From Candidatus Lokiarchaeum ossiferum (GTDB taxonomy: Archaea; Asgardarchaeota; Lokiarchaeia; Sigyniarchaeales; Promethearchaeaceae), in the NCBI GenBank assembly GCA_025839675.1, contig CP104013.1, positions 5,880,001-5,912,000 on the forward strand: a DNA stretch of 32,000 nt. The letters run 5' to 3'. The position numbers and the translations under genes were made by a program. The notes under the pieces were generated by a model that worked only from the letters and a program-made list of their open reading frames with translations, did not search any database and had not been told where the DNA came from. The first letter of the stretch is position 1; every line of letters begins with the position of its first letter. Shown one piece after another: positions 1 through 30,555 of the stretch.

Positions 1-871
1 TTGTAGATTGTAGTGCTTCTGTTAAGAAGCCTACTGCAAATACTGATCCTGTTTCACCAAAATGAGAAAATTGTAATTTTTCTAACACAGTTCCGATACT
101 TTTTTCTTGGGTGGGATATGGGGCGGGGCTAAAGTCGATTCCTTCAAAAGTTATTTTATTTTCTTCACAAAATGGGGCTGCGATATTTGCAATCTGATCA
201 TAAATTGCCTCAAATCGATTATGGATCTGTTCTTTAATTTTCGATAGTGAATATTGAGTTGGAGGATAATTTTCTAATATTTTAACCATTTCATCTGCAG
301 CTTCCAAAGCAATTGACAGTTTAGGGGCCATTCCTTGATGATATGCTGATGGAAAAAAAGGCGTGTTTGGTTTTACATTGAAAGTTACTGCAAATTGAAC
401 ATTCTGAAATGGATCTGGGGTTGAAAGGTGTTGAATTATTTGAGCTCCTGCTTTTACTGCTTCAAAATTGATACCTTGTTGGGTTGAAGCCACTTGTAAG
501 CTAGAAAACATATTTGAATGGGATTTCATCAATATTGGAAGTTCATCTATTATCATTTTCTGAGAAATTGTTAAAGGTGTTGATTGATCACAAAGCCCGG
601 GGCAAAATGAATAGATTCCTAAAAGTTCTTCTTCCACTAAAGAATCCATTTCTGTCAAAATTTCATGTCGATTTGCCAAAATTTCATCTTTGTTTACATC
701 AGATTGTTTTGAGAATGGTTCTCCAGCAAATCTTATGTATTGAACTTCAATATTAGTTTTTTCAAAACTTTGTTTTAACGATTGGATCTTGATGAGATTC
801 TCCTTAATTTTTTTGAGATCCTTAGATCTATCTCGAATATTTTGTCCTAACGTGATTGCCCGAATTTTCAT
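1..871 (-). CDS. DUF711/UPF0210-family protein, N-terminal ~290 codons (3' end runs off the window start)
   Basis: Absent from the ORF track because the window edge truncates it. I checked the minus-strand frame codon by codon. ATG at 871-869 is the first start after the in-frame stop at 919-917, and the frame stays open to position 1. The translation starts MKIRAITLGQNIRDRSKDL and ends GIDFSPAPYPTQEKSIGTVLEKLQFSHFGETGSVFAVGFLTEALQST. The IRxITLG start and the GIDxSxAPxP...FG..G block match my memory of DUF711 proteins. Confidence 0.55.
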   Translation of the reverse strand, partial: MKIRAITLGQNIRDRSKDLKKIKENLIKIQSLKQSFEKTNIEVQYIRFAGEPFSKQSDVNKDEILANRHEILTEMDSLVEEELLGIYSFCPGLCDQSTPLTISQKMIIDELPILMKSHSNMFSSLQVASTQQGINFEAVKAGAQIIQHLSTPDPFQNVQFAVTFNVKPNTPFFPSAYHQGMAPKLSIALEAADEMVKILENYPPTQYSLSKIKEQIHNRFEAIYDQIANIAAPFCEENKITFEGIDFSPAPYPTQEKSIGTVLEKLQFSHFGETGSVFAVGFLTEALQST

Positions 872-916
872 GCTAAGTACTAAAGAATGGGATAAAAAAA
901 TAAGGTTTCGAAAATC

Positions 917-1918
917 CTAAAGACCATGGAAGAACTTTTCAGCGGTTTTCCAATAAATATTTTCTAAGACATCCATGGGAAGATCTAGTCCGTTAATTAC
1001 GGTTTTGTTGTCATTCTCCGGATCGGGAAATGGTAATGCAAGATTTTTCACTTTTGTTTCCAATAGTGCTTGATAAGTTAAATATCGAGTGAAATAGTAT
1101 TCAGGAATTTCAATATGGCGTTGGCTACCAAAGGAAAGGTCCGTTCCCCATAAAATTCGATCACTGTATTTTTTAAAGAATGTAATTGATTCTTCTCGTT
1201 TTTGAGAAAATTCCCTCGCCATCCATCTCGCAGAACTTGCGTCTACATAATAATTTGGGTAGGTATCAAACCATCTTGCTAAATTATCAAGATGTTCAGG
1301 TTGAGCTCCAAAATGTGCACCTAATATCTTCATTTTAGGATATTTTTTCAGAACTTCTTCAAATGAATCGAGATGTTCTTTTTTTGTTCCATATTTACTT
1401 TCAGGTTGGTAAACTCTTTCGTAATAAGTGTCTGGATCACTGTTATGCACCAAGAATATTAATCCAAGTTCTTCAATTTTAGAATATATGGGATCAAAAA
1501 TCGGGTTGGAGAGTCTCAGTTTTCCTGCTTTCTTTTTAAATTCTTCGTCTACATAATCTATCCAGCGAGGTCCAAACCAAAATTTGATTATTGGATATCC
1601 TTGGTTGTAGTATTCCTGAACCATATTTGCGCTATCTTTAGCGTTACCCTTCAAAAGTGTTTTACTTCGCAAAAACCTCGCAAATATAAATCGTTCTTTG
1701 AGTTCTGGGGAAAGATTTTGAGCGATATCTTCATCTAGAATCGCCAAGGATTTTTTTATATTAAAATCTTCGACATATGTGAGATGTTCTTCTGCTAATT
1801 TTAAATCCCAAACATGAGTGTGTGCATCAAATTTTGGACCAGTATATTTTATTGCGAGATCTTTGAAATCATTTTCCATGTGCTCTTTTCCAAAGCGTTG
1901 TATCCTTTCGGTTGTCAA
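917..1918 (-). CDS. Amidohydrolase-2 type TIM-barrel metal-dependent hydrolase family protein
   Basis: 333-aa ORF with the N-terminal HxH metal motif FDAHTHVWD, then LVHNSD, GAHFG and WGTDLSFG, as in Amidohydro_2 enzymes. Lies 76 nt downstream of the BshC-like gene on the same strand. Confidence 0.7.
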   Translation of the reverse strand: MTTERIQRFGKEHMENDFKDLAIKYTGPKFDAHTHVWDLKLAEEHLTYVEDFNIKKSLAILDEDIAQNLSPELKERFIFARFLRSKTLLKGNAKDSANMVQEYYNQGYPIIKFWFGPRWIDYVDEEFKKKAGKLRLSNPIFDPIYSKIEELGLIFLVHNSDPDTYYERVYQPESKYGTKKEHLDSFEEVLKKYPKMKILGAHFGAQPEHLDNLARWFDTYPNYYVDASSARWMAREFSQKREESITFFKKYSDRILWGTDLSFGSQRHIEIPEYYFTRYLTYQALLETKVKNLALPFPDPENDNKTVINGLDLPMDVLENIYWKTAEKFFHGL

Positions 1919-1994
1919 TTTTTATTCAATTCCATTAATTTTGATAAGGTGTGAACGAAAAAATATTTTATGGTTAGGATGACTGTGATAAAAA

Positions 1995-3707
1995 TTAAAA
2001 AGTGATGTTCATTCCCGGAGGCATCCATGCTTTGTAATACTTCTTATAATCATCATAAATGTGTGAAATTCCATTTTTTAAGGCTAAATCTATCCAGTGG
2101 AATACCGCTTCTTGTCCATGTTTTTCTTTGGTTATTTTTCCAAACATATTACTTAGATAACAAGCAACTATTTTTGATTCTGGTGATTCAGGATGTGATT
2201 TGACATAATTTGTGCAAATCTGTTCAAGCTGTCCCATTGCAGTATGCATTGATGTCAAAATATCTATCGCTTTTATTCTACGTTTATCAAATTCATCAAT
2301 ATTATCTTTCTTTTTACATAATTTATTGAATTTTCCCACATTTTTCATAACATCTTTCAGACCATCGAAAAAGCCAGGAATTTGTAAATCAATCATTTGC
2401 TGTTCTAAATTCCTTGTAATCATCGTATTCATGGTTGTTTTATTATAAAAATAGATAACAGGGAGCATAACCGATGCGTCGAATTTTTTCATCAACGGAA
2501 TTCCCATGGTATAATATCGCGCTTCTCCTGTTCCAGCAATATGTACTCCAATTGGTACCGTGCTTGAAACTAAATATTGTCTGGATTCTACACGTGGAGT
2601 CAAATTTTGGCCGATACCAGTTAAATCCGGATTTGATGTACTTACTTCGAATTCCACTTCATTTTTACACAATGTGCATGTTCCTTTGACAACGGTTTTG
2701 GACCCATTAGACTCAGCGTGCAGTTGTATTCGGTTGTGGTAGCAATTTGGATTTTGACATTCATAAAAGAACGGAATAAAATTTGATGCAATTTCTCGAA
2801 GGGGGGGGACCATCCCTTGGTTAGTAAAATCTTGTCTAAGCGAATCGTATATTTGAAAGTAATTTGTCCGATTTTTCATTAAAATTTCATAGTGGGGAAT
2901 TAATAATCTGCGATAATCTGGATCGCTAGCCGATAGGAAAAGATATCCTTGATCGCTTGCGATATTTGAAAAGAATCCTGCAATATTGAGGAAAATGTCT
3001 GGATATTCAGTTGATTTTGTCCAGCTATTTTTAATATGAAGTAAAGCGGAATCTAATCGCTCTTCATACATTTTTCTTTCCCAGTTGTCTGAAACACTGG
3101 ATGATATTGAAAATTTATATTGTTTTTCTATTTTTCTCAAATATTCATTCATTTCTTGAGTCGATGGTAGCGGTAAATCTTTGATCCGTGTTCCATTATA
3201 TTCGTTTTCCTGGATTGGAGGAATAGATAAATTAAAACCTGATTGGGAATTGCATAATGAAAAATGAGTTTTAATTAATTCTGGATGAACTTTGTCATAA
3301 TCGGCCATATAGAAAAAAGGAAACATATCACCCGCATGGTCGGCAAAAGCGGAACCACAGGCTAACTTATTATAGACAAATCGCTCTCCACCAAGAAATT
3401 TTGGTTGATGGGCAACTTCTATCCCCAGTCTATTTTGATAAAACATTTCTAAATGGGATTGAGCTTTATCAGTAAACAAATGATATTTTTGGGTAATTCT
3501 TTGAAATATTTTCCCAAGTTGTTCTCTATATTCATCTGTAAAGAAATTGCCTGAATTCGTTGATTGATTGAGTCGAGCTAATTTAATTGCATCTTGCATG
3601 GAACTGGGGATGTAATATCTCATTTTTTCTGAAACCCAATTATTTTTACCCTCAATTGCCCACTTTTTATAGGATTGAATGGGATCCGAAGTAAGTTGTA
3701 TTGTCAT
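1995..3707 (-). CDS. BshC-family protein (homologue of the putative cysteine-adding enzyme of bacillithiol synthesis) with an inserted Cys4 zinc ribbon
   Basis: 570-aa ORF. Three blocks match Bacillus BshC as I remember it. HQPKFLGGERFVYNK resembles GGQQxGLxxGPLYTIxK. PFFYMADYDKVHPE resembles PIFWxAGEDHDxDE. TPRVESRQYLVSSTVPIGVHIAGTGEARYY resembles TRPLxQExxIPTxAFIAGPGExxYW. The helical C-terminal third also fits. The extra CQNPNC...CTLCKNE (residues 317-347) is not in Bacillus BshC. Confidence 0.6.
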   Translation of the reverse strand: MTIQLTSDPIQSYKKWAIEGKNNWVSEKMRYYIPSSMQDAIKLARLNQSTNSGNFFTDEYREQLGKIFQRITQKYHLFTDKAQSHLEMFYQNRLGIEVAHQPKFLGGERFVYNKLACGSAFADHAGDMFPFFYMADYDKVHPELIKTHFSLCNSQSGFNLSIPPIQENEYNGTRIKDLPLPSTQEMNEYLRKIEKQYKFSISSSVSDNWERKMYEERLDSALLHIKNSWTKSTEYPDIFLNIAGFFSNIASDQGYLFLSASDPDYRRLLIPHYEILMKNRTNYFQIYDSLRQDFTNQGMVPPLREIASNFIPFFYECQNPNCYHNRIQLHAESNGSKTVVKGTCTLCKNEVEFEVSTSNPDLTGIGQNLTPRVESRQYLVSSTVPIGVHIAGTGEARYYTMGIPLMKKFDASVMLPVIYFYNKTTMNTMITRNLEQQMIDLQIPGFFDGLKDVMKNVGKFNKLCKKKDNIDEFDKRRIKAIDILTSMHTAMGQLEQICTNYVKSHPESPESKIVACYLSNMFGKITKEKHGQEAVFHWIDLALKNGISHIYDDYKKYYKAWMPPGMNITF

Positions 3708-3730
3708 TGGATGTAATCCTTATTGAGTTT

Positions 3731-4420
3731 TTATATCTTTGTGATATCATGAATTTGAAAATAAGTCGGGCATATTAATGCTTCTGCATATTCCACTCCA
3801 ATTTCAAAGCCTAAATTTGCAGCTCGGTTTCGTATCCAGTCAAAAATTTTCATGTTTTTCTTATTTTCATAAAACTGCGATTTATAAGCTTGTAAAGCAG
3901 CGATTTTTTCTTCGAAAGAATCCGATATATCCACTAAAAAATCTATTTTGCGTTGCATTCGAATATGGGAATGATCAAAGTATAAAATCCGAGGAGGATA
4001 ATATTCTGGATAAGAAGAATCTGTTTTTGTTAGCTTTGCTTGAAATTTTGCAGCATTAACTAAATGATGGGCTGCGATATGGTCTGCATGCCAATCTTCA
4101 CTGGGGTGAGTAATGATGGTATTAGGTCGATATTTACGAAAAATATCAGCTACTTTTACTCGATTTTCCAAAGTGTTTTCTAAAGATCGATTTGGTATAT
4201 CTAATGTCACTCGAATGTCAACTTTGAGAATGTCGGCTGCTGCTTTTGCTTCTGCCATTCGCTTTTCTATAGTTCCAAAAGGTGTAGGTTCTCCATTGGT
4301 TAAATCCAATATCCCTACTTTTTTCCCCAATTTTTTGTAATGTGCTATTATTCCCCCGCATGCTATTTCAGCATCATCGGGATGCGCACCCACAACAAGT
4401 ACATCCAGCTCTGTGTCCAT
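3731..4420 (-). CDS. PIG-L/LmbE-family N-acetylglucosaminyl deacetylase, BshB1-like
   Basis: VLVVGAHPDDAEIACGG, ILDLTNGEPTPFGTIEKRMAEAKAAADIL, SEDWHADH and ALQAYKSQF align by eye along the whole length with Bacillus BshB1 (YpjG). The track starts at a TTG (4450). I prefer the ATG at 4420 because GGAGGAG lies 8-9 nt upstream of it (ttggaggagaacataATG). Confidence 0.8.
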   Translation of the reverse strand: MDTELDVLVVGAHPDDAEIACGGIIAHYKKLGKKVGILDLTNGEPTPFGTIEKRMAEAKAAADILKVDIRVTLDIPNRSLENTLENRVKVADIFRKYRPNTIITHPSEDWHADHIAAHHLVNAAKFQAKLTKTDSSYPEYYPPRILYFDHSHIRMQRKIDFLVDISDSFEEKIAALQAYKSQFYENKKNMKIFDWIRNRAANLGFEIGVEYAEALICPTYFQIHDITKI

Positions 4421-5369
4421 TATGTTCTCCTCCAAGTTGCGCCGTATCAATAAGGCAAGGTTTTGTTTCTAGTTTTAGTGAATCGATTTCTCCAAAAATG
4501 TGTCTTCGAACTGTTTCAAAATTACTTTGAGTTATTTCTTCAATGGAATTGAAGTAAGATCTAAAAATATCTTGCAAGTAAACAATTTCTTCAGAAAGAT
4601 TATAACCCGCAAATTGAGCGATAATGTTCACATATTTTTCAATGCGTTTTTCCCCTTCTTTAAACAGGAAACTTTCGGAAGTGCGTTTTTTCATGATCAT
4701 ATCTCGATCTTTGTAGATTACAGGGACGCTTTTTTCAACGATGTGAAAATTGTTTTTCTGGGCTTCCATCCATAATTGAATTGGCATTTCATATCCATCC
4801 AAAGTAAGGTTTAACTTAGACAACCTATCTACGCGATAAGCTTTAAATCCACAAAAAGCATCAGTGAATGAAAAACCAAATGTGTTTAATACACCTGTGA
4901 TAACCGTATTGACTAAAAACCTATCCTTCCAAGGTTGCTGCCAGAAGAGTTTTGCATCTAAATATCGTGATCCTGAAACAATATCGTAATTATTAGTATT
5001 ATTTTGAATAAGGAAATCAACAAATTGGGATATAAATTGAGATTCATGTTGACCATCAATATCAAAAGAGATAACATAGTCATAGCTTTTTTGCTGTGCT
5101 ATTTGAAATCCGCGTTTGATTACATATCCGTAGCCCTTATTTTGAGGTAAATTTAGTACTTGAAACTCAAATAGAGATTGGTGATTTTTAAGAGTGTCTG
5201 CTGTTATATCTGTAGAGCCATCATTTATTACAAGTACATCAAAATTTATTGCATGTCGTTCTTCCACCTTTTCTTTTTCCTGTTTAATTTCTTTTAGGAC
5301 AGAGACACAATTTTCTGCCTCATTATAACATGGTAAGAACAATAGGATTTTATTGATTGGTTTTTTCAT
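4374..5369 (-). CDS. Family 2 (GT-A, inverting) glycosyltransferase, DPM1/GtrB-like catalytic domain with a ~100-aa unique soluble C-terminal region
   Basis: LPCYNEAEN, VLVINDGSTD, FDIDGQHESQF and DIVSGSRY are typical Glycos_transf_2 motifs. No TM helices are visible. The 3' end overlaps the deacetylase gene by 47 nt (77 nt if the TTG start is used). Confidence 0.8.
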   Translation of the reverse strand: MKKPINKILLFLPCYNEAENCVSVLKEIKQEKEKVEERHAINFDVLVINDGSTDITADTLKNHQSLFEFQVLNLPQNKGYGYVIKRGFQIAQQKSYDYVISFDIDGQHESQFISQFVDFLIQNNTNNYDIVSGSRYLDAKLFWQQPWKDRFLVNTVITGVLNTFGFSFTDAFCGFKAYRVDRLSKLNLTLDGYEMPIQLWMEAQKNNFHIVEKSVPVIYKDRDMIMKKRTSESFLFKEGEKRIEKYVNIIAQFAGYNLSEEIVYLQDIFRSYFNSIEEITQSNFETVRRHIFGEIDSLKLETKPCLIDTAQLGGEHNGHRAGCTCCGCASR

Positions 5370-5740
5370 TTGAGACTCCCTCTATTTATAAGCACAATCC
5401 AAGATTTTTAATCAGTCTGCACTTAAAGTATTATTTCTTATATGTTAAAAAAAAAAACCATGTATGGTTAATAATATATATTTTGTTGGTAATTATTACG
5501 TGGAATGTTCATATTGAATGAAATCTGATTAATTTGACCCAAAATATTTAGCCGCATTTTTTATAAGGGTCCATTCATACCCAAATCTGATATTTGAAAA
5601 TTCAGATCTGCCATTTGCATATTTACGTTCGGAACTAATTTAGTTTAGCGAATGTATTTATTTAAATGTTTCTGTTATGGTGTGAAAAATTATTTATAAA
5701 ACTTTTGAAATAATAGATAAATTAGAAAAAAAGCACAAAA

Positions 5741-6877
5741 TTATCGTTTGACATAGATTGATACAACATCCCCATCCAATAAAACATGATCTCGGTTAAT
5801 AAACTTCTGTCCTGGATGTTTTGCGGAAGGACCCCAAATCAGGGTGTATCGATAATTGGCGAGAATATTTTTATGTAATTTTAGACAAAGTCGTTCAATA
5901 TCATCGCCCTTTTTCATGATAATTGGGTCATCCATATCAGCTTCTTGCTGTGGAGGTTTTAAATATATTCTAATTAAATCTAATTCTTGAAAGATTCGAT
6001 GTCGGAGATCATCAATATTTTCTTTATTGAGGGCGGAAATTTTGACCCAGCCATCATGACCTATGGCTTGAGTAATATCTTCATTTGTGAGTTTTTTTCG
6101 AGCTAAGTCTTGTTTATTGATCACTACAAATTCTTTGGTATAAATTCGATTTCCCATCACAAAATCAATCAATTGATCAGGAGTTATCATAGGTTCTGAA
6201 AAATACACACTGGCATTGCTATATCCAAGTTCATTCATTAAACCCTTGACTTCATCTTGATCCATTATTTGATCTCCATTGTAAGAAAAACCAATCCCGC
6301 CGCGAGTTCGCTTTTTAATGACAATTCTGGCTTTTTTCTGGTTTAAACGTATTCCAGCATTATGTAATTCGTTTCGAATGAAATTTAAATCTTCAAAGTT
6401 TATCATTCCCTCATAATTGAAACATATTAAGATCAAAACCAAATCTGCAGATCGCACACATCCTAAAATTTCACGTCCACGACCTTTCCCCGAAGCGGCA
6501 CCCAAAATAATTCCCGGCAAATCTACAAGTTGAATATTTGCACTTTCAATATCCATCATCCCCGGAATTGCTGAAACTGTGGTAAATTCATAGGAAGCCA
6601 CTTTGGATTCTGTATTTCCTCGAGTTAATAGATTGAGTAGTGAGGATTTACCGACACTTGGAAATCCAATAAAGGCAACTTGAGCATCCCCATGTTTTTT
6701 AACATTATAACCACTCCCACCACCAGTTTTTTTGGAGGCAATGGTTATCAATTGATTTCGTAGCTTGGCAATTTGGGCTCTTGTATAATTAATGGACTTC
6801 TGTGTGGCTTTATTCTTTTGGGTTCTTGCCAATCGTTCTTCATATTCACGGATTTTTTCTTCAATTTTTTCGCTCAA
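5741..6877 (-). CDS. drg: DRG-type (developmentally regulated GTP-binding protein) OBG-family GTPase with C-terminal TGS domain
   Basis: N-terminal helical ARTQKNKAT...QIAKLR, G1 GFPSVGKSSLLN, G3 DLPG, G4 NKQD, and a C-terminal TGS-like IRIYLKPP...DDPIIMKKGDDIERLCLKLHKNI...YTLIWGPSAKHPGQKFINRDHVLLDGDVVSI. Confidence 0.85.
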   Translation of the reverse strand: MSEKIEEKIREYEERLARTQKNKATQKSINYTRAQIAKLRNQLITIASKKTGGGSGYNVKKHGDAQVAFIGFPSVGKSSLLNLLTRGNTESKVASYEFTTVSAIPGMMDIESANIQLVDLPGIILGAASGKGRGREILGCVRSADLVLILICFNYEGMINFEDLNFIRNELHNAGIRLNQKKARIVIKKRTRGGIGFSYNGDQIMDQDEVKGLMNELGYSNASVYFSEPMITPDQLIDFVMGNRIYTKEFVVINKQDLARKKLTNEDITQAIGHDGWVKISALNKENIDDLRHRIFQELDLIRIYLKPPQQEADMDDPIIMKKGDDIERLCLKLHKNILANYRYTLIWGPSAKHPGQKFINRDHVLLDGDVVSIYVKR

Positions 6878-7093
6878 ATTCCAATTTCTCTCCGTTGGTA
6901 TCTAAGACGAAAAATGAGGCAAATTCAAAAAAATTTACGATTTATCGTATCCTTTTTTTGTTAATTAGACACTTTCTAATTTTTTTATTGAATCAATATG
7001 CTTATCTTTTCATTGAATTTTCCATTAATCCAGATATTATTCAGTTTAAATCCTGATTTTAATATAATTGCTTACATGATAACTTTTTAACTC

Positions 7094-7100
7094 TATAAAT
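7094..7100 (+). promoter_or_regulatory. TATA-box-like element upstream of the first MscS gene
   Basis: tataaat is centred about 27 nt upstream of the ATG at 7124. That spacing fits an archaeal TATA box driving a leaderless or near-leaderless mRNA. Sequence pattern only. Confidence 0.35.
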
Positions 7101-7123
7101 GAAGTATACAATAGTGAAAAAGC

Positions 7124-8023
7124 ATGGAAGACATTTGGACAAGGTTCGTAGGCATGGAAGATACATGGATTAAGATCATATTTATCTTCGCAATTCTCGT
7201 GATTTATGGGATAATTATATTCCTAATTAACCGTTTCAATCAAAAAACGGCAGGTTCTACATCCACAATTAATGGATTGAAGGTAATTATTCGATTCATT
7301 GCAATTTTGATAATTGTGTTAATAATTTTCTCAATTTTTGCTAATTCAGATCAATTAATTCTTTCAGTTTCTTCAGTATCTGGAATTATTATTGGTTTTG
7401 CAGCAACGGAAGTGGTCGGGCAAATGGTTGCGGGATTATTGCTTATTACCGCAAAACCATTCGATATAGAAGATCTGGTTCAAATAGGAAGTTACCAAGG
7501 AGTGGTTGAAGAAATAAATCTAAATTATACTATCTTGAAATTATTTGATGGTACGCATGTTAAAATCCCCAATAAAAAACTTCTCGATACAAAATTCTTG
7601 AATTTTACTTTGGAAACTGATAAAGCGCTCCAAAAACATCAAGGAATAGAAGAAAAACAACGCAAAATTCCAAAAATGGCCCCTCAAAAATTGAAATGGT
7701 TTGATCGAAAGACTTTTTTGAAATTATTTGGAGATATTACAGAAAACATAATTGAAACAAAAATCACTCGGTATTCTTTCAAAGTTGAGTTGGACTTCAG
7801 TATCGATCCTGAGGTTGTAATAGAAAAGCTAAAAAAAATCTGTGAAAAATACCAACCGATTTATAATTTTAAACCAAGATTTGCAATTGTGGATTTAGGA
7901 TGGCGACCAAAAGTTAAGATTTGGATTTTTTGTTCCAATCCATATCTAATCATGTCAAATCAAAACAATTTCATCACAGAAATTGCAAAGGATTTCTACA
8001 GCAAAGAAAAGGAGGGTGTATAA
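7124..8023 (+). CDS. MscS-family mechanosensitive ion channel
   Basis: Three N-terminal TM helices, then GIIIGFAATEVVGQMVAGLLLITAKPFDIEDLVQIGSYQGVVEEINLNYTILKLFDGTHVKIPNKKLL, which is the MS_channel pore-helix plus beta-domain signature. Confidence 0.75.
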   Translation: MEDIWTRFVGMEDTWIKIIFIFAILVIYGIIIFLINRFNQKTAGSTSTINGLKVIIRFIAILIIVLIIFSIFANSDQLILSVSSVSGIIIGFAATEVVGQMVAGLLLITAKPFDIEDLVQIGSYQGVVEEINLNYTILKLFDGTHVKIPNKKLLDTKFLNFTLETDKALQKHQGIEEKQRKIPKMAPQKLKWFDRKTFLKLFGDITENIIETKITRYSFKVELDFSIDPEVVIEKLKKICEKYQPIYNFKPRFAIVDLGWRPKVKIWIFCSNPYLIMSNQNNFITEIAKDFYSKEKEGV

Positions 8024-9073
8024 ATGACAATTTTAGAAGAAAGTACTGATCCTTGGTTCGATCCCTCTGCATTTTTAGCTTCAGGAGGAACTTGGGAGTT
8101 CCTTAACTTTTCAATTCAGAAATACGCGGTTTTCGCAATATTGCTTGGGATTGTATTAATTTTGCTATTTAATTTTGTATTAAAGTTTCAATTTAAAAAG
8201 TTAGTTGATCGGCGTAAACTTCCCCCGAATATATATAATGGTCTTAAATTTTTCATGAGAATTTTCTTTGGAACTTTAACGATTTGGTTAATACTTGGAA
8301 TTCTTCAAGTCAAAGTTGGTTTTGTGTGGATTATTATTGGGATCTTAACTTCAGCAATCACTTTTGCTTCAATGAAAACAATTAATAATTTTATTGCAGG
8401 AATATGGATTGCATTAAATCGCCCATATATTGTAGGGGATTACGTGAAAATTGGTAGTACGATTGGAATTGTTAAGAATATTTCTACTAATTACACTCAA
8501 TTAATCCACAACGATGCGACAGTTTCATATTTGCCAAATCTTGAATGCTTAACATCAACAATTTTGAATTATACTTGGTCCCTCTCGCTGATTCAGAGAC
8601 AAATAATTGATTTAGAGAAAAATTTGGAAAAAATTATACTAATTCCGGAGTCGAATGAGAAAGATATTGAAAAAAATACTAAAATTCAACTTGTTGGCCA
8701 AATTAAGGCAGATATTAAAGAGCAAAAGCTTATTGTAAAAGAAATAGAGATTTTTGAGGAAGAACTCGATAAAGCTCACAAAGATGGTGTGAAGGATAAA
8801 CACGACTTCTCAAATTATGCTCAGAAAGGAAAAATTGTAAATTACGTATTTACTCTAGAACTCCCAAAGGATTATAATGGAAATGCAGATAAATTGACTT
8901 CGGTGTGTTCCAAATGGGCCAAAGAATTTAATTTTCGACCTCAATGGGATCTAGTGGATATTAACTCCCATTTTGTATATCAATTCACCATCCTTACTCC
9001 CGATCCTTTAGATATTGTCTATTTTCTTGATGATTTTGTTACGGATGTCTATATGACAATTTATCATGTCTAA
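8024..9073 (+). CDS. MscS-family mechanosensitive ion channel (paralogue; K/E-rich insertion in the C-terminal domain)
   Basis: NNFIAGIWIALNRPYIVGDYVKIGSTIGIVKNISTNYTQLIHNDATVSYLPN matches the MS_channel core. The ATG follows the upstream TAA directly (8021-8023 / 8024). Carries a charged coiled-coil-like insert, LEKNLEKI...KEIEIFEEELDKAHKDG. Confidence 0.7.
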   Translation: MTILEESTDPWFDPSAFLASGGTWEFLNFSIQKYAVFAILLGIVLILLFNFVLKFQFKKLVDRRKLPPNIYNGLKFFMRIFFGTLTIWLILGILQVKVGFVWIIIGILTSAITFASMKTINNFIAGIWIALNRPYIVGDYVKIGSTIGIVKNISTNYTQLIHNDATVSYLPNLECLTSTILNYTWSLSLIQRQIIDLEKNLEKIILIPESNEKDIEKNTKIQLVGQIKADIKEQKLIVKEIEIFEEELDKAHKDGVKDKHDFSNYAQKGKIVNYVFTLELPKDYNGNADKLTSVCSKWAKEFNFRPQWDLVDINSHFVYQFTILTPDPLDIVYFLDDFVTDVYMTIYHV

Positions 9074-15631: not shown

Positions 15632-15666
15632 TCCTTCTTATTAATATTGTGAAGGATGTGCTGTAT

Positions 15667-16398
15667 ATGGAAAAAAACTTGATTTTATTATTTGGATGCA
15701 CTGTTTTAAAAATTGTTGCATTATCTCTGCTTGGATATTTTCTTATTAATAAATGGAAGCGTCAATCAAAGAAATATTATACTGATTTTCCCTTTTTAAT
15801 GTCGATAACCTTTTTTGGCTATGCTCTGGCAAAAATTTATGATCTGTGTCTATATTATATATTTAGGGATACCCCTGATTTAGAATTATTAACTGAATTT
15901 GATCCTACATTGTTGATCATTGTAAAAATTCGATTTGTTTTATGTCCGGTGCTTGTAATTGCACCATATCTGGTTTTAATGATGATGATTTGGTTTCAAG
16001 ACCGAGTTCGAACTCAAAAAATAATTGGGGTCAGTTGGATTATTTTGAGTTTATTGAGCATCATAGTTGTTCAAAATTACTCCCAAATTTTAATAGTAAA
16101 CGCCCTAGTCGCTTTCCCAATTATTTTATTGTCGATTATTAGTTTCTTCGTACTCAATCATCAAAAAAAGTTACACGAAATTAATAGTTTAGTGCTAGCA
16201 ATTGCATGGAGTCTTTATGTGTGCACCCAATTGCTAAGGCCGCTTTGGATAACTCTTGGTTCGGGAACTTGGGGCTTAACATGGGTTGGTGAATTAGTTG
16301 AGTTGTTGACTCTGGTTATGATTGGAATTGGGTTCATCATTCCTGCAAATTATAGGAAGATTCAAGGAACAAATTTAATGAAGACTGCTGTTTATTGA
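15667..16398 (+). CDS. Seven-TM integral membrane protein of unknown function
   Basis: Seven hydrophobic helices by eye, from LILLFGCTVLKIVALSLLGYFLI to WVGELVELLTLVMIGIGFIIP. I recognise no family motif. The ATG at 15667 is preferred over the GTG at 15649. Confidence 0.55.
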   Translation: MEKNLILLFGCTVLKIVALSLLGYFLINKWKRQSKKYYTDFPFLMSITFFGYALAKIYDLCLYYIFRDTPDLELLTEFDPTLLIIVKIRFVLCPVLVIAPYLVLMMMIWFQDRVRTQKIIGVSWIILSLLSIIVVQNYSQILIVNALVAFPIILLSIISFFVLNHQKKLHEINSLVLAIAWSLYVCTQLLRPLWITLGSGTWGLTWVGELVELLTLVMIGIGFIIPANYRKIQGTNLMKTAVY

Positions 16399-16411
16399 AA
16401 GGAAAAAATGG

Positions 16412-17443
16412 TTATAATTTTTTTTGAAATACTTTAAAATGAGCCACTTTTACTGACCCTTTGGAGAATGATTTTAGAGCTGGTATGTTTTTACTCCATA
16501 CAGTTGCTCCTATATGATTTTTAACCCCCATTTGTTGCAATTTTTGGAATAATCTTAGATAAATCCATGGAAAAGTATTTGAATTTCGATATTTTTTATT
16601 TATTATTGCAGTATCAATATCTGCACTGAAAATTTGTTTTTTATTCTGCCAAAGATCAAAAATATTTGGAATTTCAAGAATTGCGGCGATAATTTCATGT
16701 GTATCCTTATCAAAAGCGAGGATGTAGTAATTTTCTCCTTGTTCCACACTTTGTAATAAGGAAAACATTCGCATCATTTTGTTATCTCCAGTAGTATCGG
16801 GTAATCTTTTTGAAAAATTATTTTGCACAAATTCAGCTAGTTGATTAAGTAAGGCTCTATCATTCAATAAATTTGGAATTGAAAATCTCTTCAACTCCAT
16901 ATTAGGATATGGACATTCTCCCGGATCCCATTCTGTCGCCAATACTGAAACATATTCCGTTTCAGATATCCACCCTGCTTCTTCGATCCATTTTTCCAAT
17001 CTTGGGTCATTTTCTGCTGAGTTGACTAAAGCCTCATTTTCAAATCCAATAGTTCGTATTCCCCATCCTCCATATAACGAAGGTGTATTGATTGGTCCTC
17101 TGACCTTCTCAAAACCCATTTGAGATACAAAATTTGAAACATGTTCCAAAAGATCTGCACAAATATCTCGTGTATCCGCTTGTAACCATCCGAAAATGGG
17201 AATTTTTTTACCATAAGAAAAATGATATGGTTCTAGTTCACAGTATATACATCCTAAAATGACATTTGATTTAATATTCTTAGCTAAAAATAATGTTCCA
17301 TGCGTGCGTTGTCTGTGCGCATCAAAAATGGGCTGAAAATTCTCCTTGAACCAAGAAGGGCGATCAAGATATTTTAAAAAGTCATTGCTGGGGGAAGAAT
17401 GGGATATTTCGATAATTTGATAATTTGAAAGTAGTAGAGTCAT
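16412..17443 (-). CDS. Conserved hypothetical protein, possible GNAT-fold acyltransferase-like protein
   Basis: 343-aa ORF. GFEKVRGPINTPSLYGGWGIRTIGFENEALV...NDPRLEKWIEEAGW resembles a bacterial/archaeal family annotated as GNAT-like (RGPIN....G.L.eGF). This assignment is weak. Confidence 0.45.
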   Translation of the reverse strand: MTLLLSNYQIIEISHSSPSNDFLKYLDRPSWFKENFQPIFDAHRQRTHGTLFLAKNIKSNVILGCIYCELEPYHFSYGKKIPIFGWLQADTRDICADLLEHVSNFVSQMGFEKVRGPINTPSLYGGWGIRTIGFENEALVNSAENDPRLEKWIEEAGWISETEYVSVLATEWDPGECPYPNMELKRFSIPNLLNDRALLNQLAEFVQNNFSKRLPDTTGDNKMMRMFSLLQSVEQGENYYILAFDKDTHEIIAAILEIPNIFDLWQNKKQIFSADIDTAIINKKYRNSNTFPWIYLRLFQKLQQMGVKNHIGATVWSKNIPALKSFSKGSVKVAHFKVFQKKL

Positions 17444-17501
17444 GAATTTTATGATCTTTATTAGTATTTAAAATCGAAAGAAAAAATAATTAAAAAAAGG
17501 C

Positions 17502-18800
17502 TTAGGATGTCATCGGATGAATTAAAGTTGGGTAAATTGATGCTTGGGATGCGACTTCTATGTTGTTTAAATTTCTTGAATTTGCTTGTCTAAGTACTGT
17601 ACGTAAAATTTCCGTGTCTTGAATCAGTTTTGGTTCCGGAATATTTCTTTTTAGACTGTGCCATGAAAATACTACAATATCTCGAAATTTATTAGTTCGT
17701 TTATTTTTAACCCAAGCAGGAATATACCCGCAAATCTGATATTTTTTGTTCAAAAGGATTTCAATCTGATTGATTTCGGAAGCATCAACATTAAGTTCAA
17801 CATACTCGATTTTTTCAGATAAAACATATTGTTCCAAAAGAACCAAGAATGCGGAAAAAACAACCATATTTGAGCAGTGATATTGTATTTTTTCGATGTT
17901 TTTCACCGACAAGGTATGCAATCCTTCCATAAAATCACCTGTTGATTCTAAAGAAAAATGAAAGTGTTTATACCCATAGTTATCTTGAGAAATTTTTAAG
18001 GATATTTCATCTAAGATTTTACTTATTTTTTTTGAATGGTAATTGAGATTAAATTTTGAAGTTATCGTTGGAATCTCTTCAAAATTATACTGCATTGCAA
18101 TTCTTGAGTAGAGAGGTTTCACACGATGGTGAATTTTCTCAGGAGGTTGGCGTGTATTATAAAGTGCATTTTTTCTATAGGCCACCATTAGAACATCAGT
18201 TTCTTTCTTGTTTAAAAAAGTGTCTTTTCCCTCGTATATCGCATAAGGAAGTGCTCCAATTTGGCGAGATAAATATTGTACTATATTATGGGCTGTTCTG
18301 GATTCGTTATACCATTTATCAATTGTCCCTTCATTTTGTTCACAGAAACGATGTATCATCGCATAACTTAATTCGCGAACGTTAATTTTTCCTTGATATT
18401 CAGGGAGAATATTTAATCCACGCATGTAAGCGGACTTATTGTAAGTATCTAATGTAATTGTAAAACATCCAACAATAGGCTTTTCTGTATCCTTTTGAGC
18501 ATCAAAACGGAAAATTCCCCAATGAAAAGTTGGATCTTGAAACGTTTTAAATATAAATTTGGGATCAAGCATTTCTTTGTAGGGATAAGTTCCTTCATAA
18601 ATTTCGTTGTAAATATAGACAATGGATTTTGCTTCTTCTAATGTTGTGGGTTCTTCGATCATGACAGAGAGCTTCTCATCCTTATTCTCTCCATACAAAT
18701 ACTTTCCATCTTCACCATATTTAATCAAAAATTCATCGATTGAGTCACATGCTGAAGATTTGTAGGAAATATGATTTTGAATCGGTTTTGCAATCTCCAT
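17502..18800 (-). CDS. Conserved hypothetical protein with two GNAT-like halves (tentative)
   Basis: 432-aa ORF. IVGCFTITLDTYNKSAYMRGLNILPEYQGKINVRELSYAMI resembles the GNAT beta4-alpha3 region with a degenerate acetyl-CoA motif. The C-terminal half (VELNVDASEINQIEILLNKKYQICGYIPAW) looks like a second, degenerate GNAT fold. Confidence 0.45.
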   Translation of the reverse strand: MEIAKPIQNHISYKSSACDSIDEFLIKYGEDGKYLYGENKDEKLSVMIEEPTTLEEAKSIVYIYNEIYEGTYPYKEMLDPKFIFKTFQDPTFHWGIFRFDAQKDTEKPIVGCFTITLDTYNKSAYMRGLNILPEYQGKINVRELSYAMIHRFCEQNEGTIDKWYNESRTAHNIVQYLSRQIGALPYAIYEGKDTFLNKKETDVLMVAYRKNALYNTRQPPEKIHHRVKPLYSRIAMQYNFEEIPTITSKFNLNYHSKKISKILDEISLKISQDNYGYKHFHFSLESTGDFMEGLHTLSVKNIEKIQYHCSNMVVFSAFLVLLEQYVLSEKIEYVELNVDASEINQIEILLNKKYQICGYIPAWVKNKRTNKFRDIVVFSWHSLKRNIPEPKLIQDTEILRTVLRQANSRNLNNIEVASQASIYPTLIHPMTS

Positions 18801-21314: not shown

Positions 21315-23918
21315 TCATTTCATAAAGACTAATTGATAAATTGAATATAAAGACGGAAGATGGAAATTAAAAATGAATTTATTTTTCAGGAGCAAAAAAT
21401 TTAGGAGAATAATTAAAAAGAATGATATCAAGCAAATCCAATCTTTGTTAGACCAACCAACATGATATATATTTGTACGGCTTGAATTTAATCCAAAACC
21501 TCGTGCTTCGATTGTAGATGCCGTTGTTTTTGCTTTTCGAATTATCGAAATTAATAATGTAGTAATTCTCTGTAATATATGTCGATAAATCTTTTTAATG
21601 GAATTTCCCTTTTTTATTCCAGATCCTCGTAAGGTTTGCGCAATTTCAATTGTATTGGATTCTTGTTCTATTAAAGGAATGTAACGTAGTCCAATCATAA
21701 AAGAAAATGCATATCTATAAGGAATTCCGATTTCAATTAAAGAGTAAACTAAATCCTTTGGGGCAGTTGTTCGGGTGAATATCACTGCTGTTGAAACAAA
21801 GATAATTATAAGAAATCCCGTTCTAAGAGAATAATACAGAGCCAAACGTCGAACGGGCAATCTTTCGGTGAAAATATAAAATAATACTTGATCCGAACCA
21901 AGATTATTGGCATCAAAAAGAGTGTTTAGTGGAATGTAGATGAAAGTGAGCATTATTACCCACCGAATTTGCCGTAAAAGGCGTTTAGATGGGATGCCAC
22001 CGAGTTTGGCAATAATCAAAATCACTCCATAGCATATTGCTAAAAAAAAAATACTCCTTTGATAAAAAAGGAAAAATGTTAGAACTATTAAAATCAGCAG
22101 TTTTACTACTGGATTTAATTGATATATCCAACTGGTTTCATCAAATGTGCTTGATTTATGAAGAAAAATGTTTATACGCGAAATTTTACGATGTTTTTTT
22201 TGTTGTTTCTTTGTTTCCTTAGTTTTTTTTTTGGTTTGATCATTATTTATTAATTTCTTTTGATTTGAAATGGCATCAATATGGTTAGTTTTTTCTTTGA
22301 GTTCAATTATGCGGGAACAATTGGCCTTTAATAATTCTCGATCATGAGACACAATGACTATTGTTTTCCCAAGCTTGTGAAATTCATGCAGGATTTCAAA
22401 AATTCTTTGCATTGATTGGGCATCCTGCCCAATAAACGGCTCATCAACAAGTAATAAATCGGGATTATAACTAAAAATTGATGCAAGGTTCAAACGCCGC
22501 TTTTGTCCCCAACTAAGACAGAAAGGATTCTTGTCTTCAAGGATTTGAAGATCACTTCGCTTTTCACCTATCAAAGGGGTATAAAGATGGGAGATTTTCT
22601 CTTCTTCTTCTGCAGATAATTTATTCTTTTGATGATCTGCTTGTTTACTTTTAGTTTTCTTAAAATTTTGAACAAAATTTCGCGGTGCAAATAAAATTTC
22701 ATCCTTTATCGTACTTTCAAATATTTGATTTTCTGGATTTTGAAAAATAAATCCAATTTTTGGGATAAAGGAGTCTAAATCAAACTTTCCATATTCTTGG
22801 CCATTAAAATATAGTTTTCCTGAGCTTGGCTCAAGCATATGGGCTATCAAGTAGAGTAGTGTGGTTTTTCCAGACCCATTATCTCCAACTAATCCAATAA
22901 ATTCTCCAGAATTAATTTTTAATGAAAAATTGGAAAAGATACCAGGAAAAGTATTAGTATAAGAAAAAGTCACATCGTCAATACGAATTACTTCTTCTCT
23001 ATTCGATGCTGGTGCCTTAGTTTGAGTGCCCAGATCCGTTAAATTGGATGAAGATTCATATTTTTTTATTGAAGAATCATCTCTAAGATGGATTTTTGGA
23101 GATTTTAATTTATATTGGAGATATTTTTGCGGATTTCCTTGAAAATCAATACTACCTTCATGATTTAGTACGAGAATTTGATCTACTATAGTCATAAAGG
23201 GTTGAAGGCGGTGTTCTACAATGATGATCGTTAAATCGGGGTTGATTCTTCGTAATTTATTCAATATTTTTAGAAATCTTATTTCCCCATGAGAATCTAA
23301 AAATGCAAGAGGTTCATCTAAAATAAGAATTTTGGGATTCATCACCAGATTTGCAGCTAAAATAACTTTTTGTTTTTCGCCCCCACTTAATGAAAAAATC
23401 GACCTTTTCAATAATTTGGTTATACCCAGATCTTCTGCAATCTGATTTACTCGCAATTGAGTTTCTTTCTTTGATATATTTAAGTTTTCGGCAGCAAACG
23501 CAATTTCATCAAAGACGGTGAACGTTACTAACTGTTCATCTGCATTTTGAAATACATAACTTATATCACGTGCGATATTTTCCTGATCGTGCGCCCATAT
23601 ATCCCTATTCTGCAGTAAAAATTCTCCACTGTATTGACCTGTTATGTTGAATGGAATCCTACCTGCAATAGTATTACACAAAGTACTCTTTCCTGATCCG
23701 CTCACCCCACCAATTAATAGTGTTTTTCCTGAAGATATATTTAGATTTATGTTTTTTAGAGCAAAAGGACCGGAATTCCCATAACGAAAAGAATAGTTCT
23801 TCAATTGGACAATATCTAATTGATAATTTTGTTGAGAAATCAGTGATTGGAGGCTAGCATTTGAAGCTTTAGTTGTAAATGTATCTTCTATTTTTGCTGA
23901 TTCATCCTTATTAATCAT
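21315..23918 (-). CDS. ECF transporter module fused into one polypeptide: EcfA - EcfA' - Lys-rich linker - EcfT (YkoD+YkoC-like)
   Basis: ATPase 1 (about residues 36-265): GVSGSGKST, LSGGEKQKV, ILILDEP. ATPase 2 (about 310-545): GDNGSGKTT, LSWGQKRRL, LLLVDEP. Linker: DQTKKKTKETKKQQKKHRK. T domain (about 595-867): LNPVVKLL, FTRTTAPKDLVYSLIEIGIPYRYAFSFMIGLRYIPLIEQE...AQTLRGSG and EARGFG, the CbiQ/EcfT signature. Confidence 0.8.
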   Translation of the reverse strand: MINKDESAKIEDTFTTKASNASLQSLISQQNYQLDIVQLKNYSFRYGNSGPFALKNINLNISSGKTLLIGGVSGSGKSTLCNTIAGRIPFNITGQYSGEFLLQNRDIWAHDQENIARDISYVFQNADEQLVTFTVFDEIAFAAENLNISKKETQLRVNQIAEDLGITKLLKRSIFSLSGGEKQKVILAANLVMNPKILILDEPLAFLDSHGEIRFLKILNKLRRINPDLTIIIVEHRLQPFMTIVDQILVLNHEGSIDFQGNPQKYLQYKLKSPKIHLRDDSSIKKYESSSNLTDLGTQTKAPASNREEVIRIDDVTFSYTNTFPGIFSNFSLKINSGEFIGLVGDNGSGKTTLLYLIAHMLEPSSGKLYFNGQEYGKFDLDSFIPKIGFIFQNPENQIFESTIKDEILFAPRNFVQNFKKTKSKQADHQKNKLSAEEEEKISHLYTPLIGEKRSDLQILEDKNPFCLSWGQKRRLNLASIFSYNPDLLLVDEPFIGQDAQSMQRIFEILHEFHKLGKTIVIVSHDRELLKANCSRIIELKEKTNHIDAISNQKKLINNDQTKKKTKETKKQQKKHRKISRINIFLHKSSTFDETSWIYQLNPVVKLLILIVLTFFLFYQRSIFFLAICYGVILIIAKLGGIPSKRLLRQIRWVIMLTFIYIPLNTLFDANNLGSDQVLFYIFTERLPVRRLALYYSLRTGFLIIIFVSTAVIFTRTTAPKDLVYSLIEIGIPYRYAFSFMIGLRYIPLIEQESNTIEIAQTLRGSGIKKGNSIKKIYRHILQRITTLLISIIRKAKTTASTIEARGFGLNSSRTNIYHVGWSNKDWICLISFFLIILLNFLLLKNKFIFNFHLPSLYSIYQLVFMK

Positions 23919-25526: not shown

Positions 25527-26144
25527 TTATTCTAAATATAATGCATTGAAATATTTCACCGAGAATTTTGAATTGTGAACATGATTAAATCCGGGAGATA
25601 AATTTTCTTGGAATAATGAGATCACTTCTGGATCATTTTCAATTCCTTCCATCAAAACCGCAGACATCAGAGGACCATCACCCCCATTAGTGCGATTTGG
25701 GATGATCTTTCCATCAATATGAGTGACTATTATGAAATCATCTGGGTGTTCTTCAAGCAATCTAAATGGTAACAAATATGTAAGATAACCATCTGTCGCT
25801 TCAAAACGAAAATATTGTGGGTTTTGTAATAGTTGCTTCATAGATTGTAGTACATCCCATACTCTGACCCCCGATATATTAAATGTTCTTGTCGTATTGT
25901 ACATATTTTTCCAGAAATAGGATACATTTTCAATTCTTGGAATTGAATCATCAATGAAATTTGAATAACCGATAAATGATTCTTGAGTTACTTCCCCATA
26001 AACGCGAACACACCATGTTTCTTCACACGATTCATATTTTTCCAGAATCTTCTGATATTCGACCCAATTATAAACAAAAAGACTTACCAAAATCCCGCTG
26101 AAAATTACTGTAAATAGAGCAATTCGAAGTGTCCGTTTTTTCAT
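25527..26144 (-). CDS. N-terminally anchored extracellular protein with one sulfite-oxidase/YedY-like (SUOX-fold-like) domain
   Basis: Signal anchor MKKRTLRIALFTVIFSGILVSLFV. The domain is FNISGVRVWDVLQSMKQLL..YFRFEATDGYLTYLLPFRLLEEHPDDFIIVTHIDGKIIP...GDGPLMSAV...HNSKFSVKYFNALYL. It is a clear paralogue of the next gene. The fold call is tentative. Confidence 0.45.
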   Translation of the reverse strand: MKKRTLRIALFTVIFSGILVSLFVYNWVEYQKILEKYESCEETWCVRVYGEVTQESFIGYSNFIDDSIPRIENVSYFWKNMYNTTRTFNISGVRVWDVLQSMKQLLQNPQYFRFEATDGYLTYLLPFRLLEEHPDDFIIVTHIDGKIIPNRTNGGDGPLMSAVLMEGIENDPEVISLFQENLSPGFNHVHNSKFSVKYFNALYLE

Positions 26145-26185
26145 TGTGAATCATGTGATGTAATTATAATAAAAAAAAGGAGATA

Positions 26186-27049: not shown

Positions 27050-27050
27050 T

Positions 27051-28073: not shown

Positions 28074-28148
28074 GATAGAAAATCCATTCCTTGACAGTAA
28101 ATTAAAAAAGAAAAAAATTATCTTGTTTAAGTTTTCTAGTCCAATTTA

Positions 28149-30314: not shown

Positions 30315-30555
30315 CACATTAAATACGTATAATATTTGTCTAATATCTCTCACAGTATTAATTGGTCGATATTAACAATGAAACATAACGATGTTTTTCT
30401 AATTAAGTTTTTCTTTTTATAATACCCGATCTCAAGATAAAAACTTCAAGAAAGTGTTTTTGGACAAAATGATTCACTTTAGTAAATAATTTTTCAAAGT
30501 ATAGGGGCATTAATATTAATATTTGATCTTGAACTAAACTAATCAGAAAATAACT

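Follow-up and report, generated by a model that had tools for sequence, protein, structure and literature searches.

A conserved gene cassette of Asgard archaea that may encode a bacillithiol-like pathway with a GT2 glycosyltransferase in the place of BshA

Do Asgard archaea make a sugar thiol related to bacillithiol, and if so, by which enzymes? The question is raised by five genes at positions 1-5369 of a 32,000-nucleotide (nt) stretch of the Candidatus Lokiarchaeum ossiferum genome (contig CP104013.1, positions 5,880,001 to 5,912,000; hereafter, the window). A preliminary description of this stretch had proposed that the five genes encode a variant bacillithiol-type pathway, in which a family 2 glycosyltransferase (GT2) takes the place of the family 4 (GT4) enzyme BshA, next to a BshB-like deacetylase, a BshC-like protein, an amidohydrolase and a DUF711 protein. 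We observed that the first four of these genes form a conserved cassette. The most likely explanation of it, in which we have about even confidence, is that the cassette encodes a variant route to a bacillithiol-like cysteinyl-glucosamine thiol, with the GT2 replacing BshA.

All five genes lie on the minus strand with tight spacing, and the distances given in the preliminary description were reproduced exactly. The GT2 is 100% and the 570-residue protein 99% identical to database proteins of L. ossiferum. The GT2 gene comes first (4374-5369; 331 amino acids (aa); Glycos_transf_2, PF00535, E 1.6e-17) and overlaps by 47 nt the gene for a BshB1-type deacetylase of the PIG-L/LmbE family (3731-4420; 229 aa; PIG-L, E 1.2e-26; TIGR04001). 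The ATG of the deacetylase is preceded by a Shine-Dalgarno-like site, GGAGGAG; if the protein begins at an alternative start, a TTG at 4450, the overlap becomes 77 nt. After 23 nt follows the gene for the BshC-like protein (1995-3707; 570 aa), which was recognized by its fold with AlphaFold and Foldseek. The gene for an Amidohydro_2 (PF04909) enzyme with a TTG start (917-1918; 333 aa; E 3.5e-16) lies 76 nt beyond it, and another 45 nt separate this from a DUF711 (UPF0210) gene that is cut by the start of the window (1-871; PF05167, E 2.7e-43). A 19-residue Kyte-Doolittle scan predicted no transmembrane segment in any of the five proteins.

We evaluated the conservation of this arrangement using tblastn. 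The order GT2, BshB, BshC-like, Amidohydro_2 was identical in every Asgard locus that was long enough to judge. A scan of one genome per species gave 28 loci, all from Asgard archaea and including the cultured Promethearchaeum syntrophicum MK-D1, whose cassette lies at 8343-12725 of L012 (L. ossiferum itself was not among the genomes returned). Together with further metagenome contigs, the order was kept in more than 30 other genomes, where the flanks varied and the cassette proteins were only about 40% identical between lineages. Repeated in so many genomes, this shared order of four genes is far beyond chance. At high similarity, the BshC-like family was exclusive to Asgard archaea (74 clusters, from Loki-, Thor-, Hermod-, Hod- and Sigynarchaeota and from Harpocratesius). 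Six contigs picked across the range of this family carried the GT2, PIG-L, BshC-like and Amidohydro_2 genes between unrelated flanks, with one exception. This was locus L006 (6897-10809; Candidatus Harpocratesius sp.), the only cassette without the deacetylase, where the order was GT2, BshC-like, amidohydrolase. The deacetylase of this organism may be encoded elsewhere, or the sugar donor may already be an amino sugar. The co-conservation of GT2, BshB and BshC-like genes that the preliminary description had made a test of its proposal is therefore seen in all loci long enough, L006 excepted; of the five-gene order, the first four genes are kept in relatives and DUF711 is not. We conclude that the cassette consists of four genes in Loki-, Thor-, Hod- and Hermod-type Asgard archaea.

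The strongest support for a replacement of BshA by the GT2 came from a comparison with Heimdallarchaeota. A profile of the BshC-like family, searched against 1.84 billion representative proteins, found 245 relatives in tiers, and the second tier includes Heimdallarchaeota proteins that are named BshC by NCBI. One of these, P0214, bridges the Loki-type family and bacterial BshC: the Loki-type (Asgard) profile gave it 253 bits, and TIGR03998, the curated BshC model, 84 bits. On its metagenome contig (locus L039, 8001-11692), the P0214 gene is followed, in convergent orientation, by a GT4 and a PIG-L deacetylase. The GT4 is a true BshA (380.6 bits with TIGR03999, against a cut-off of 273.7), and the PIG-L protein scored 92.6 bits with the BshB1 model, which is below the cut-off. 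Neither a GT2 nor an amidohydrolase was present in this cluster. In the GT2-type cassettes, BshB adjoins the BshC-like gene and the GT2 stands in BshA's place. As L039 pairs the BshC-like gene with a true BshA and has no GT2, the two glycosyltransferases would be alternatives around the same BshB/BshC-like core.

We also looked for BshA in the genomes that carry the GT2. No GT4 domain was found in any open reading frame (ORF) of at least 100 aa in the 32-kb window, and tblastn with the Heimdall BshA gave no match, neither in the window nor within 10 kb of the GT2-type cassettes of 41 related loci. Among the best 120 of 5539 homologues of the Heimdall BshA (E <=1e-85), the named entries were from Heimdallarchaeota or bacteria, and none was from Loki-, Thor- or Hod-type genomes. 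With BshA beside the Heimdall BshC-like gene and no BshA near the GT2-type cassettes, the glycosyltransferase appears to have been swapped, in agreement with what had been proposed from the window.

The GT2, a soluble enzyme of the GT-A fold, has about 86 Asgard orthologues and is encoded immediately upstream of BshB wherever BshB is present, often with an overlap. Its AlphaFold model (predicted local distance difference test (pLDDT) score of 87.4) consists of the catalytic domain, a three-helix C-terminal extension (residues 232-296) and a disordered tail. Its maximum Kyte-Doolittle score was 1.29, with no transmembrane segment, and the most hydrophobic stretch was the segment that aligns to the interface helix IFH1 of PfDPMS. 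The nearest relatives in NCBIfam and the PDB are all polyprenyl-phosphate glycosyltransferases (PpgS, AglJ, ArnC, DPMS including PfDPMS, and GtrB). The GT2 stayed below every curated NCBIfam cut-off (PpgS 73.7 against 370 bits, AglJ 44 against 325, ArnC 42 against 529), with profile E-values of 1.4e-20 for PpgS and 2.9e-22 for DPMS. When the model was searched with Foldseek, ArnC, GtrB and DPMS were on top by E-value, and the best superpositions were with the soluble enzymes GpgS and MpgS (template modelling (TM) score 0.53-0.64, root-mean-square deviation 4-5 Å). NCBI names the L. ossiferum protein ArnC-like.

The active site of the GT2 gave an indication of the acceptor. The DXD motif (D103-I-D105-G-Q-H) aligns with DADLQH of PfDPMS. 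Arg117 and Arg131 of PfDPMS, which are ligands of the phosphate of the acceptor, dolichyl phosphate (Dol-P) (PMC5526996), align to R135 and R150 of the GT2, both of which are invariant. PfDPMS Ser135 is replaced by an invariant asparagine (N154), and Lys178, which contacts the phosphoester oxygen in PfDPMS (PMC5526996), is replaced by glutamate. Since the acceptor-phosphate arginines are conserved, the acceptor of the GT2 is probably anionic, bearing a phosphate or a carboxylate. The preliminary description had also pointed to a unique C-terminal domain of this protein. A Cys-rich tail is present (residues 313-331, window 4374-4430; sequence GCTCCGCASR), for which metal binding and lipidation are possibilities. 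Loki-type orthologues end in similar tails, and the L006 and L007 proteins in longer Cys-rich ones. No such tail is present in Thor- and Hod-type orthologues, and that of the window protein is disordered in the model; we did not retain it as a functional feature.

The deacetylase passed the equivalog cut-off of TIGR04001, the BshB1 model (197.5 bits against 182.5; residues 5-221 of 229), and scored far lower with the BshB2, MshB and Mca models. Its matches in the PDB were 2IXD (Bacillus cereus BC1534), 6P2T (Bacillus subtilis BshB1) and 1UAN (Thermus thermophilus TT1542), at E about 1e-30, compared to about 1e-7 for archaeal diacetylchitobiose deacetylases and about 1e-5 for MshB. The grouping with BshB1 rather than with the chitobiose deacetylases, on which the preliminary proposal depended, is supported by both comparisons. 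In BC1534, the zinc ligands are His12, Asp15 and His113, and the catalytic residues are Asp14, His110 and Arg53 (PMC4101496). The window protein keeps H13/D15/D16, the equivalent of Arg53 and the H-x-D-H motif; its AHPDD, IEKR and H-A-D-H segments align with the residues of BC1534 and B. subtilis BshB1. The family of the enzyme is clear from these matches, and its substrate is what we infer from them. A further residue, Arg109, contacts the substrate in BshB, and the R109K mutant is inactive (PMC4101496). At this position we found Trp in the window deacetylase and in the Thor and Hod orthologues, and Phe in MK-D1. We considered this change as a sign of an aglycone other than malate, and rejected it, as the Heimdall PIG-L protein that is paired with a true BshA has Gly at the same position.

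The 570-aa protein required structural comparison. It had no Pfam match, PF10079 included (many of its orthologues have weak precomputed PF10079 matches), and it scored 22.1 bits with TIGR03998 against a cut-off of 265.8 (E 6e-5). By sequence criteria it would fall outside the BshC family. Its AlphaFold model, built from a 31-sequence alignment, had a mean pLDDT of 93.5, and a Foldseek search of the PDB gave a single strong match, 4WBD (B. subtilis BshC), with E 2.4e-16, TM scores of 0.66/0.69 and 13% identity. The next matches were glutamyl-tRNA synthetase (GluRS) and MshC at E >=0.016 (MshC, E 0.078). A profile search of PDB sequences with the family also returned 4WBD alone, at E 0.004. The model has the Rossmann core, the connecting-peptide modules and the helical C-terminal domain of the BshC fold. 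The three sequence blocks of Bacillus BshC to which the preliminary description had pointed were colinear with 4WBD in the profile search (HQPKFLGGERF/QQAGLLTGPLY, PFFYIADYD/PIFWVAGED and IAGTGETRYY/IAGPGEINYW, the B. subtilis sequence being second), and the motifs of the family are HQPKFLGGERF, PFFYxADYD and GTGExRYY. The assignment of this protein to BshC thus stands as far as the fold is concerned and not by the cut-offs of the curated models. On the basis of the model, we regard it as a very divergent BshC-fold protein and the presumed cysteine-adding enzyme. It has one addition of its own, a four-Cys zinc-ribbon-like element (window 2667-2759, minus strand; from alignment and model). None of the cysteines C317, C322, C344 and C347 varies among the 31 aligned sequences, residues 310-356 form a small beta-sheet in the model, and the CxxC...CxxC pattern is present in more distant relatives as well.

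As the fourth conserved member of the cassette, the amidohydrolase gene was next to the BshC-like gene in all loci of sufficient length, including L006, where BshB is absent. Loki-type genomes have the two genes in the same direction, and in Thor- and Hod-type genomes they are convergent. With 60.2 bits for PF04909 (gathering threshold 26.4) and invariant residues H33, H35, H158, H202 and D260 (the H-x-H lying within DAHTH; a further motif is LPFPDPEN), the amidohydrolase is predicted to be a metal-dependent hydrolase or decarboxylase-type enzyme. It had no NCBIfam match, and sequence and profile searches of PDB chains gave only LigW, weakly, at E 0.13.

DUF711, by contrast, was found in none of the 41 related loci (tblastn), and the 45-nt gap that separates it from the amidohydrolase gene contains a T7 run. 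The inclusion of DUF711 in the unit was not borne out, and we rejected it as a fifth member of the cassette. Oligo-T runs follow both the BshC-like gene and the amidohydrolase gene in the window, so the amidohydrolase and DUF711 may be separate transcripts.

The genes that recur next to the cassette were examined by clustering the flanking ORFs. Of 34 loci, 14 had DinB_2 proteins near the cassette and 15 had a URO-D-family protein encoded immediately upstream of the amidohydrolase, in both cases in Thor- and Hod-type genomes. The best matches of the URO-D protein were methylcobalamin:coenzyme M methyltransferases (MtaA/MtbA), below the cut-offs. L004 also holds thioredoxin reductase and thioredoxin-like genes. 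DinB_2 is the superfamily of the bacillithiol and mycothiol S-transferases, and both the DinB_2 and the MtaA-like URO-D superfamilies are known chiefly for thiol-dependent chemistry. These neighbours support a thiol as the product, and the cassette thiol might accept methyl groups or be a cofactor of transferases. The extended neighbourhood was observed in L003, L004, L015, L017, L018, L022-L030 and L032, reaching about 1-5 kb past the BshC-like gene. In these loci the URO-D gene lies just upstream of the convergent amidohydrolase gene, and one or two DinB_2 genes come next.

The enzyme families and the linkage of the genes come directly from these comparisons, and the substrates in the following scheme are all deduced from homology. 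The GT2 (DPM1/PpgS-like), in the place of BshA, would move N-acetylglucosamine (GlcNAc) from UDP-GlcNAc to an anionic acceptor, a phosphate or a carboxylate. The BshB1-type zinc deacetylase would then free the 2-amino group, and the BshC-fold enzyme would join cysteine to the freed amine. The amidohydrolase, which would have been gained along with the GT2, could make or mature the aglycone or assist the BshC step; this last part is speculative. The absence of transmembrane segments from the cassette proteins supports a cytosolic setting. Compared with bacillithiol, the product would have a different linkage, a different aglycone or both, and which of these it is (another anomer, another aglycone) is pure conjecture. 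A bolder version of the scheme, which we put forward tentatively and consider somewhat short of probable, is that most Asgard lineages, including both cultured species, make a so far undescribed cysteinyl-glucosamine (GlcN) thiol with a DPM1/PpgS-like inverting GT2 and a phosphate or carboxylate acceptor, possibly as a phosphodiester or a lipid, and with the amidohydrolase possibly as a required partner.

Several points weigh against a bacillithiol-like thiol. The nearest characterized relatives of the GT2 use lipid phosphates and not soluble acceptors. The BshC-like protein is 13% identical to B. subtilis BshC and failed both curated BshC models, so its substrate could differ. The deacetylase is absent from one cassette (L006), the role given to the amidohydrolase is a guess, and the comparison of BshA homologues covers the best 120 of 5539, many of them entries without names. 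Finally, bacillithiol has never been detected in archaea (PMC7278568).

The first of these points leads to the main rival, a lipid-linked route, which we regard as unlikely. Here the GT2 would form Dol-P-GlcNAc at the membrane face, the deacetylase would turn this into Dol-P-GlcN, and the BshC-like enzyme would aminoacylate the amine, the product going to a surface glycan or lipid or forming a membrane-anchored thiol. All the characterized close relatives of the GT2 are polyprenyl-phosphate glycosyltransferases (PpgS and DPMS by profile, ArnC and GtrB by Foldseek), which agrees with the ArnC-like name given by NCBI. The phosphate-binding arginines are kept and the segment aligned to IFH1 is the most hydrophobic one (PMC5526996), but the equivalent of PfDPMS Lys178 is Glu in the GT2 family and the best superpositions are with soluble GpgS and MpgS. 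The route would parallel ArnC/ArnD, where the sugar of undecaprenyl phosphate (Und-P) is deformylated (Und-P-Ara4FN), and PpgS, which makes polyprenyl-phosphate N-acetylgalactosamine; against this, the cassette deacetylase has the score of a BshB1, whose substrate is soluble. All four cassette proteins are predicted to be soluble; PpgS and human DPM1 also have no transmembrane helices. In the related loci, no flippase, GT-C transferase or small membrane partner was conserved beside the cassette, and the DinB_2 neighbours point to a diffusible thiol.

A quite unlikely alternative to the bacillithiol-like thiol is a GlcN metabolite that is not a thiol, in which the BshC-fold enzyme adds another amino acid or an acyl group and the product serves as a compatible solute, cofactor or envelope precursor. 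The distance of the 570-aa protein from BshC (13% identity, with TIGR03998 and PF10079 failed) would allow this. The reaction of BshC itself has never been reconstituted, hence there are no known residues that define its substrate (PMC5790435), and the wider family reaches Anaerolineae and Altiarchaeota, with no BSH genes nearby in the context examined (L040). On the other side, the Heimdall proteins, encoded in a canonical BshA/PIG-L cluster, make the homology a continuous gradation, and thiol-related neighbours recur (DinB_2 and MtaA-like proteins, and the thioredoxin reductase and thioredoxin-like proteins in L004).

A very unlikely alternative is that these archaea make ordinary bacillithiol with a BshA encoded elsewhere, the GT2 and amidohydrolase being accessory and, for example, decorating or recycling the thiol: the bsh genes of Bacillus are also split among loci (PMC5790435) and a 2020 review counted as many archaeal InterPro matches for BshA as for BshC, 39 each (PMC7278568), but the named archaeal BshA proteins among the best 120 of 5539 all belong to Heimdallarchaeota, whose cluster has no GT2, no BshA-like sequence was found in the 32-kb window or the 41 related loci, and the GT2 is fixed directly upstream of BshB, often overlapping it, across lineages whose proteins are about 40% identical.

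Among the closest known systems with which we compared the cassette is the bacterial bacillithiol pathway (BshA/BshB/BshC of Bacillus and other bacteria). Shared with it are a BshB1-type deacetylase that passes the equivalog cut-off, a BshC-fold enzyme with the three blocks, the cytosolic nature of the enzymes and, near many cassettes, genes of the DinB superfamily. Unlike it, the cassette has a DPM1/PpgS-type GT2 of the GT-A fold for the GT4 BshA, a conserved Amidohydro_2 enzyme, all genes in one cassette, a BshC-like protein of 13% identity with an invariant four-Cys element, and Trp or Phe for BshB Arg109. The Heimdall cluster has in common with the GT2-type cassette the BshC-like family (253 bits), an adjacent PIG-L gene and an Asgard host; it differs in the true BshA (380.6 bits), in the lack of both GT2 and Amidohydro_2, in a deacetylase that fails the BshB1 cut-off (92.6 bits) which the Loki-type enzyme passes, and in a BshC-like protein closer to bacterial BshC (84 bits).

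The two other systems are the polyprenyl-phosphate amino-sugar pathways and mycothiol biosynthesis. ArnC/ArnD (Und-P-Ara4FN to Und-P-Ara4N) and PpgS have the GT2 that is most similar, the phosphate arginines and, after the GT2 step, the removal of an N-acyl group. The Asgard cassette differs from them in having no membrane domain, flippase or GT-C partner, in a deacylase of the LmbE/BshB1 and not the NodB type, in the BshC-fold ligase that follows, and in falling far short of all the curated transferase cut-offs (PpgS 73.7 against 370). The mycothiol pathway (MshA/MshB/MshC/MshD) likewise uses a GlcNAc glycoside, deacetylation by an LmbE-family enzyme and addition of cysteine by a Rossmann enzyme resembling class-I aminoacyl-tRNA synthetases. 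Its MshC is, however, a paralogue of cysteinyl-tRNA synthetase and only a weak structural match here (E 0.078), the Asgard deacetylase is nearer BshB1 than MshB (E 1e-30 against 1e-5), and the cassette has neither MshA (a GT4) nor the MshD acetyltransferase.

The preliminary description had called such a product undescribed for archaea. Rawat and Maupin-Furlow (2020) listed 39 archaeal InterPro matches each for BshA and BshC, mostly from Asgard archaea, and suggested that archaea may make bacillithiol, which is so far undetected there (PMC7278568). NCBI also names several members of the family BshC. The BshA matches of that review are probably accounted for by clusters of the L039 type. A 2025 survey by BLAST found no archaeon with a complete bacillithiol pathway (PMC12719100). 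This is expected, since the Asgard BshC-like proteins are so divergent. In the literature that we searched, neither the GT2-type cassette nor its amidohydrolase partner had been described, and we found no mention of a division into GT4 (Heimdall) and GT2 (Loki-, Thor- and Hod-type) genomes. The novelty is therefore narrower than first claimed and lies with the GT2-type cassette; the proposed pathway would be a variant of the known bacillithiol-type route.

Asgard archaea are the closest known archaeal relatives of eukaryotes, and their handling of oxygen and redox stress is debated. To our knowledge, no low-molecular-weight thiol has been identified in them, and the thiol proposed here, if real, would be the first sugar thiol known in archaea. 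Every Loki-, Thor- and Hod-type lineage has the cassette and so do both cultured strains, which makes the proposal directly testable. In the split between Heimdall and the other lineages, the BshB/BshC core would have been retained and the committed glycosyltransferase exchanged by non-orthologous displacement. The reaction of Bacillus BshC is still unreconstituted (PMC5790435), after more than a decade; the Asgard cassette is a useful second system for comparison and, if the proposal is true, a second and independent one for solving the BshC reaction.

The unannotated BshC-like family extends to bacteria and to other archaea. We observed a distant branch (P0250-P0340, e.g. P0268 from Anaerolineae and P0280 from Altiarchaeota) of proteins of 500-610 aa, mostly without an NCBIfam match, which have the motif HQPN(L/F)xxYxGx(F/W)KK and the CxxC...CxxC pattern. 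In the one context of this branch that was examined (L040, with P0268), no glycosyltransferase or deacetylase was close to the gene. The closest relatives of the GT2 outside Asgard archaea were short PpgS-like enzymes of Pirellulales/Planctomycetes (L037, 6001-8414; L038, 6001-8447), about 250-270 aa long and 40% identical. Each immediately precedes the gene for a protein of 533-541 aa without a Pfam or NCBIfam match, whose motifs GHQPxLFHAGVWxKNF and HGIGGAKYD look like those of the BshC-like family. That these are BshC-like proteins was not established (hhalign E 0.18; 15-17 bits with the tier-3 hidden Markov model). A GT2 with a BshC-like enzyme may be a wider module.

Upstream of the GT2 gene lies an AT-rich intergenic region (5370-5740, minus strand), which from a direct reading of the sequence is the likely promoter region of the cassette. 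It contains TTATAAAT at 17-24 nt ahead of the GT2 ATG, and AGAGGGAG comes after TTATAAAT. An Rfam scan of positions 1-7200 matched no family. The G+C content is about 33% across the whole stretch.

The remainder of the window holds sizeable ORFs without a Pfam match at 15649-18800 and 25527-30353 (249, 343, 432, 205, 287, 340 and 734 aa), and ordinary neighbours at 5741-9073 and 21315-23918. The latter are a DRG/Obg-type GTPase with a TGS domain, two tandem MscS-like channel genes, and a protein of 867 aa in which two ATP-binding cassette (ABC) ATPase domains are fused to a CbiQ-type component of an energy-coupling factor (ECF) transporter. Between 9940 and 14534 there is a cluster of a NosD/beta-helix protein, an ABC ATPase, an ABC-2 permease, a 283-aa protein without assignment and an ArsR-type regulator. 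A similar set (ABC ATPase, ABC-2 permease, an unassigned protein and HTH_5) adjoins the cassette in L001, and its resemblance to the window cluster indicates that partial synteny reaches past the cassette.

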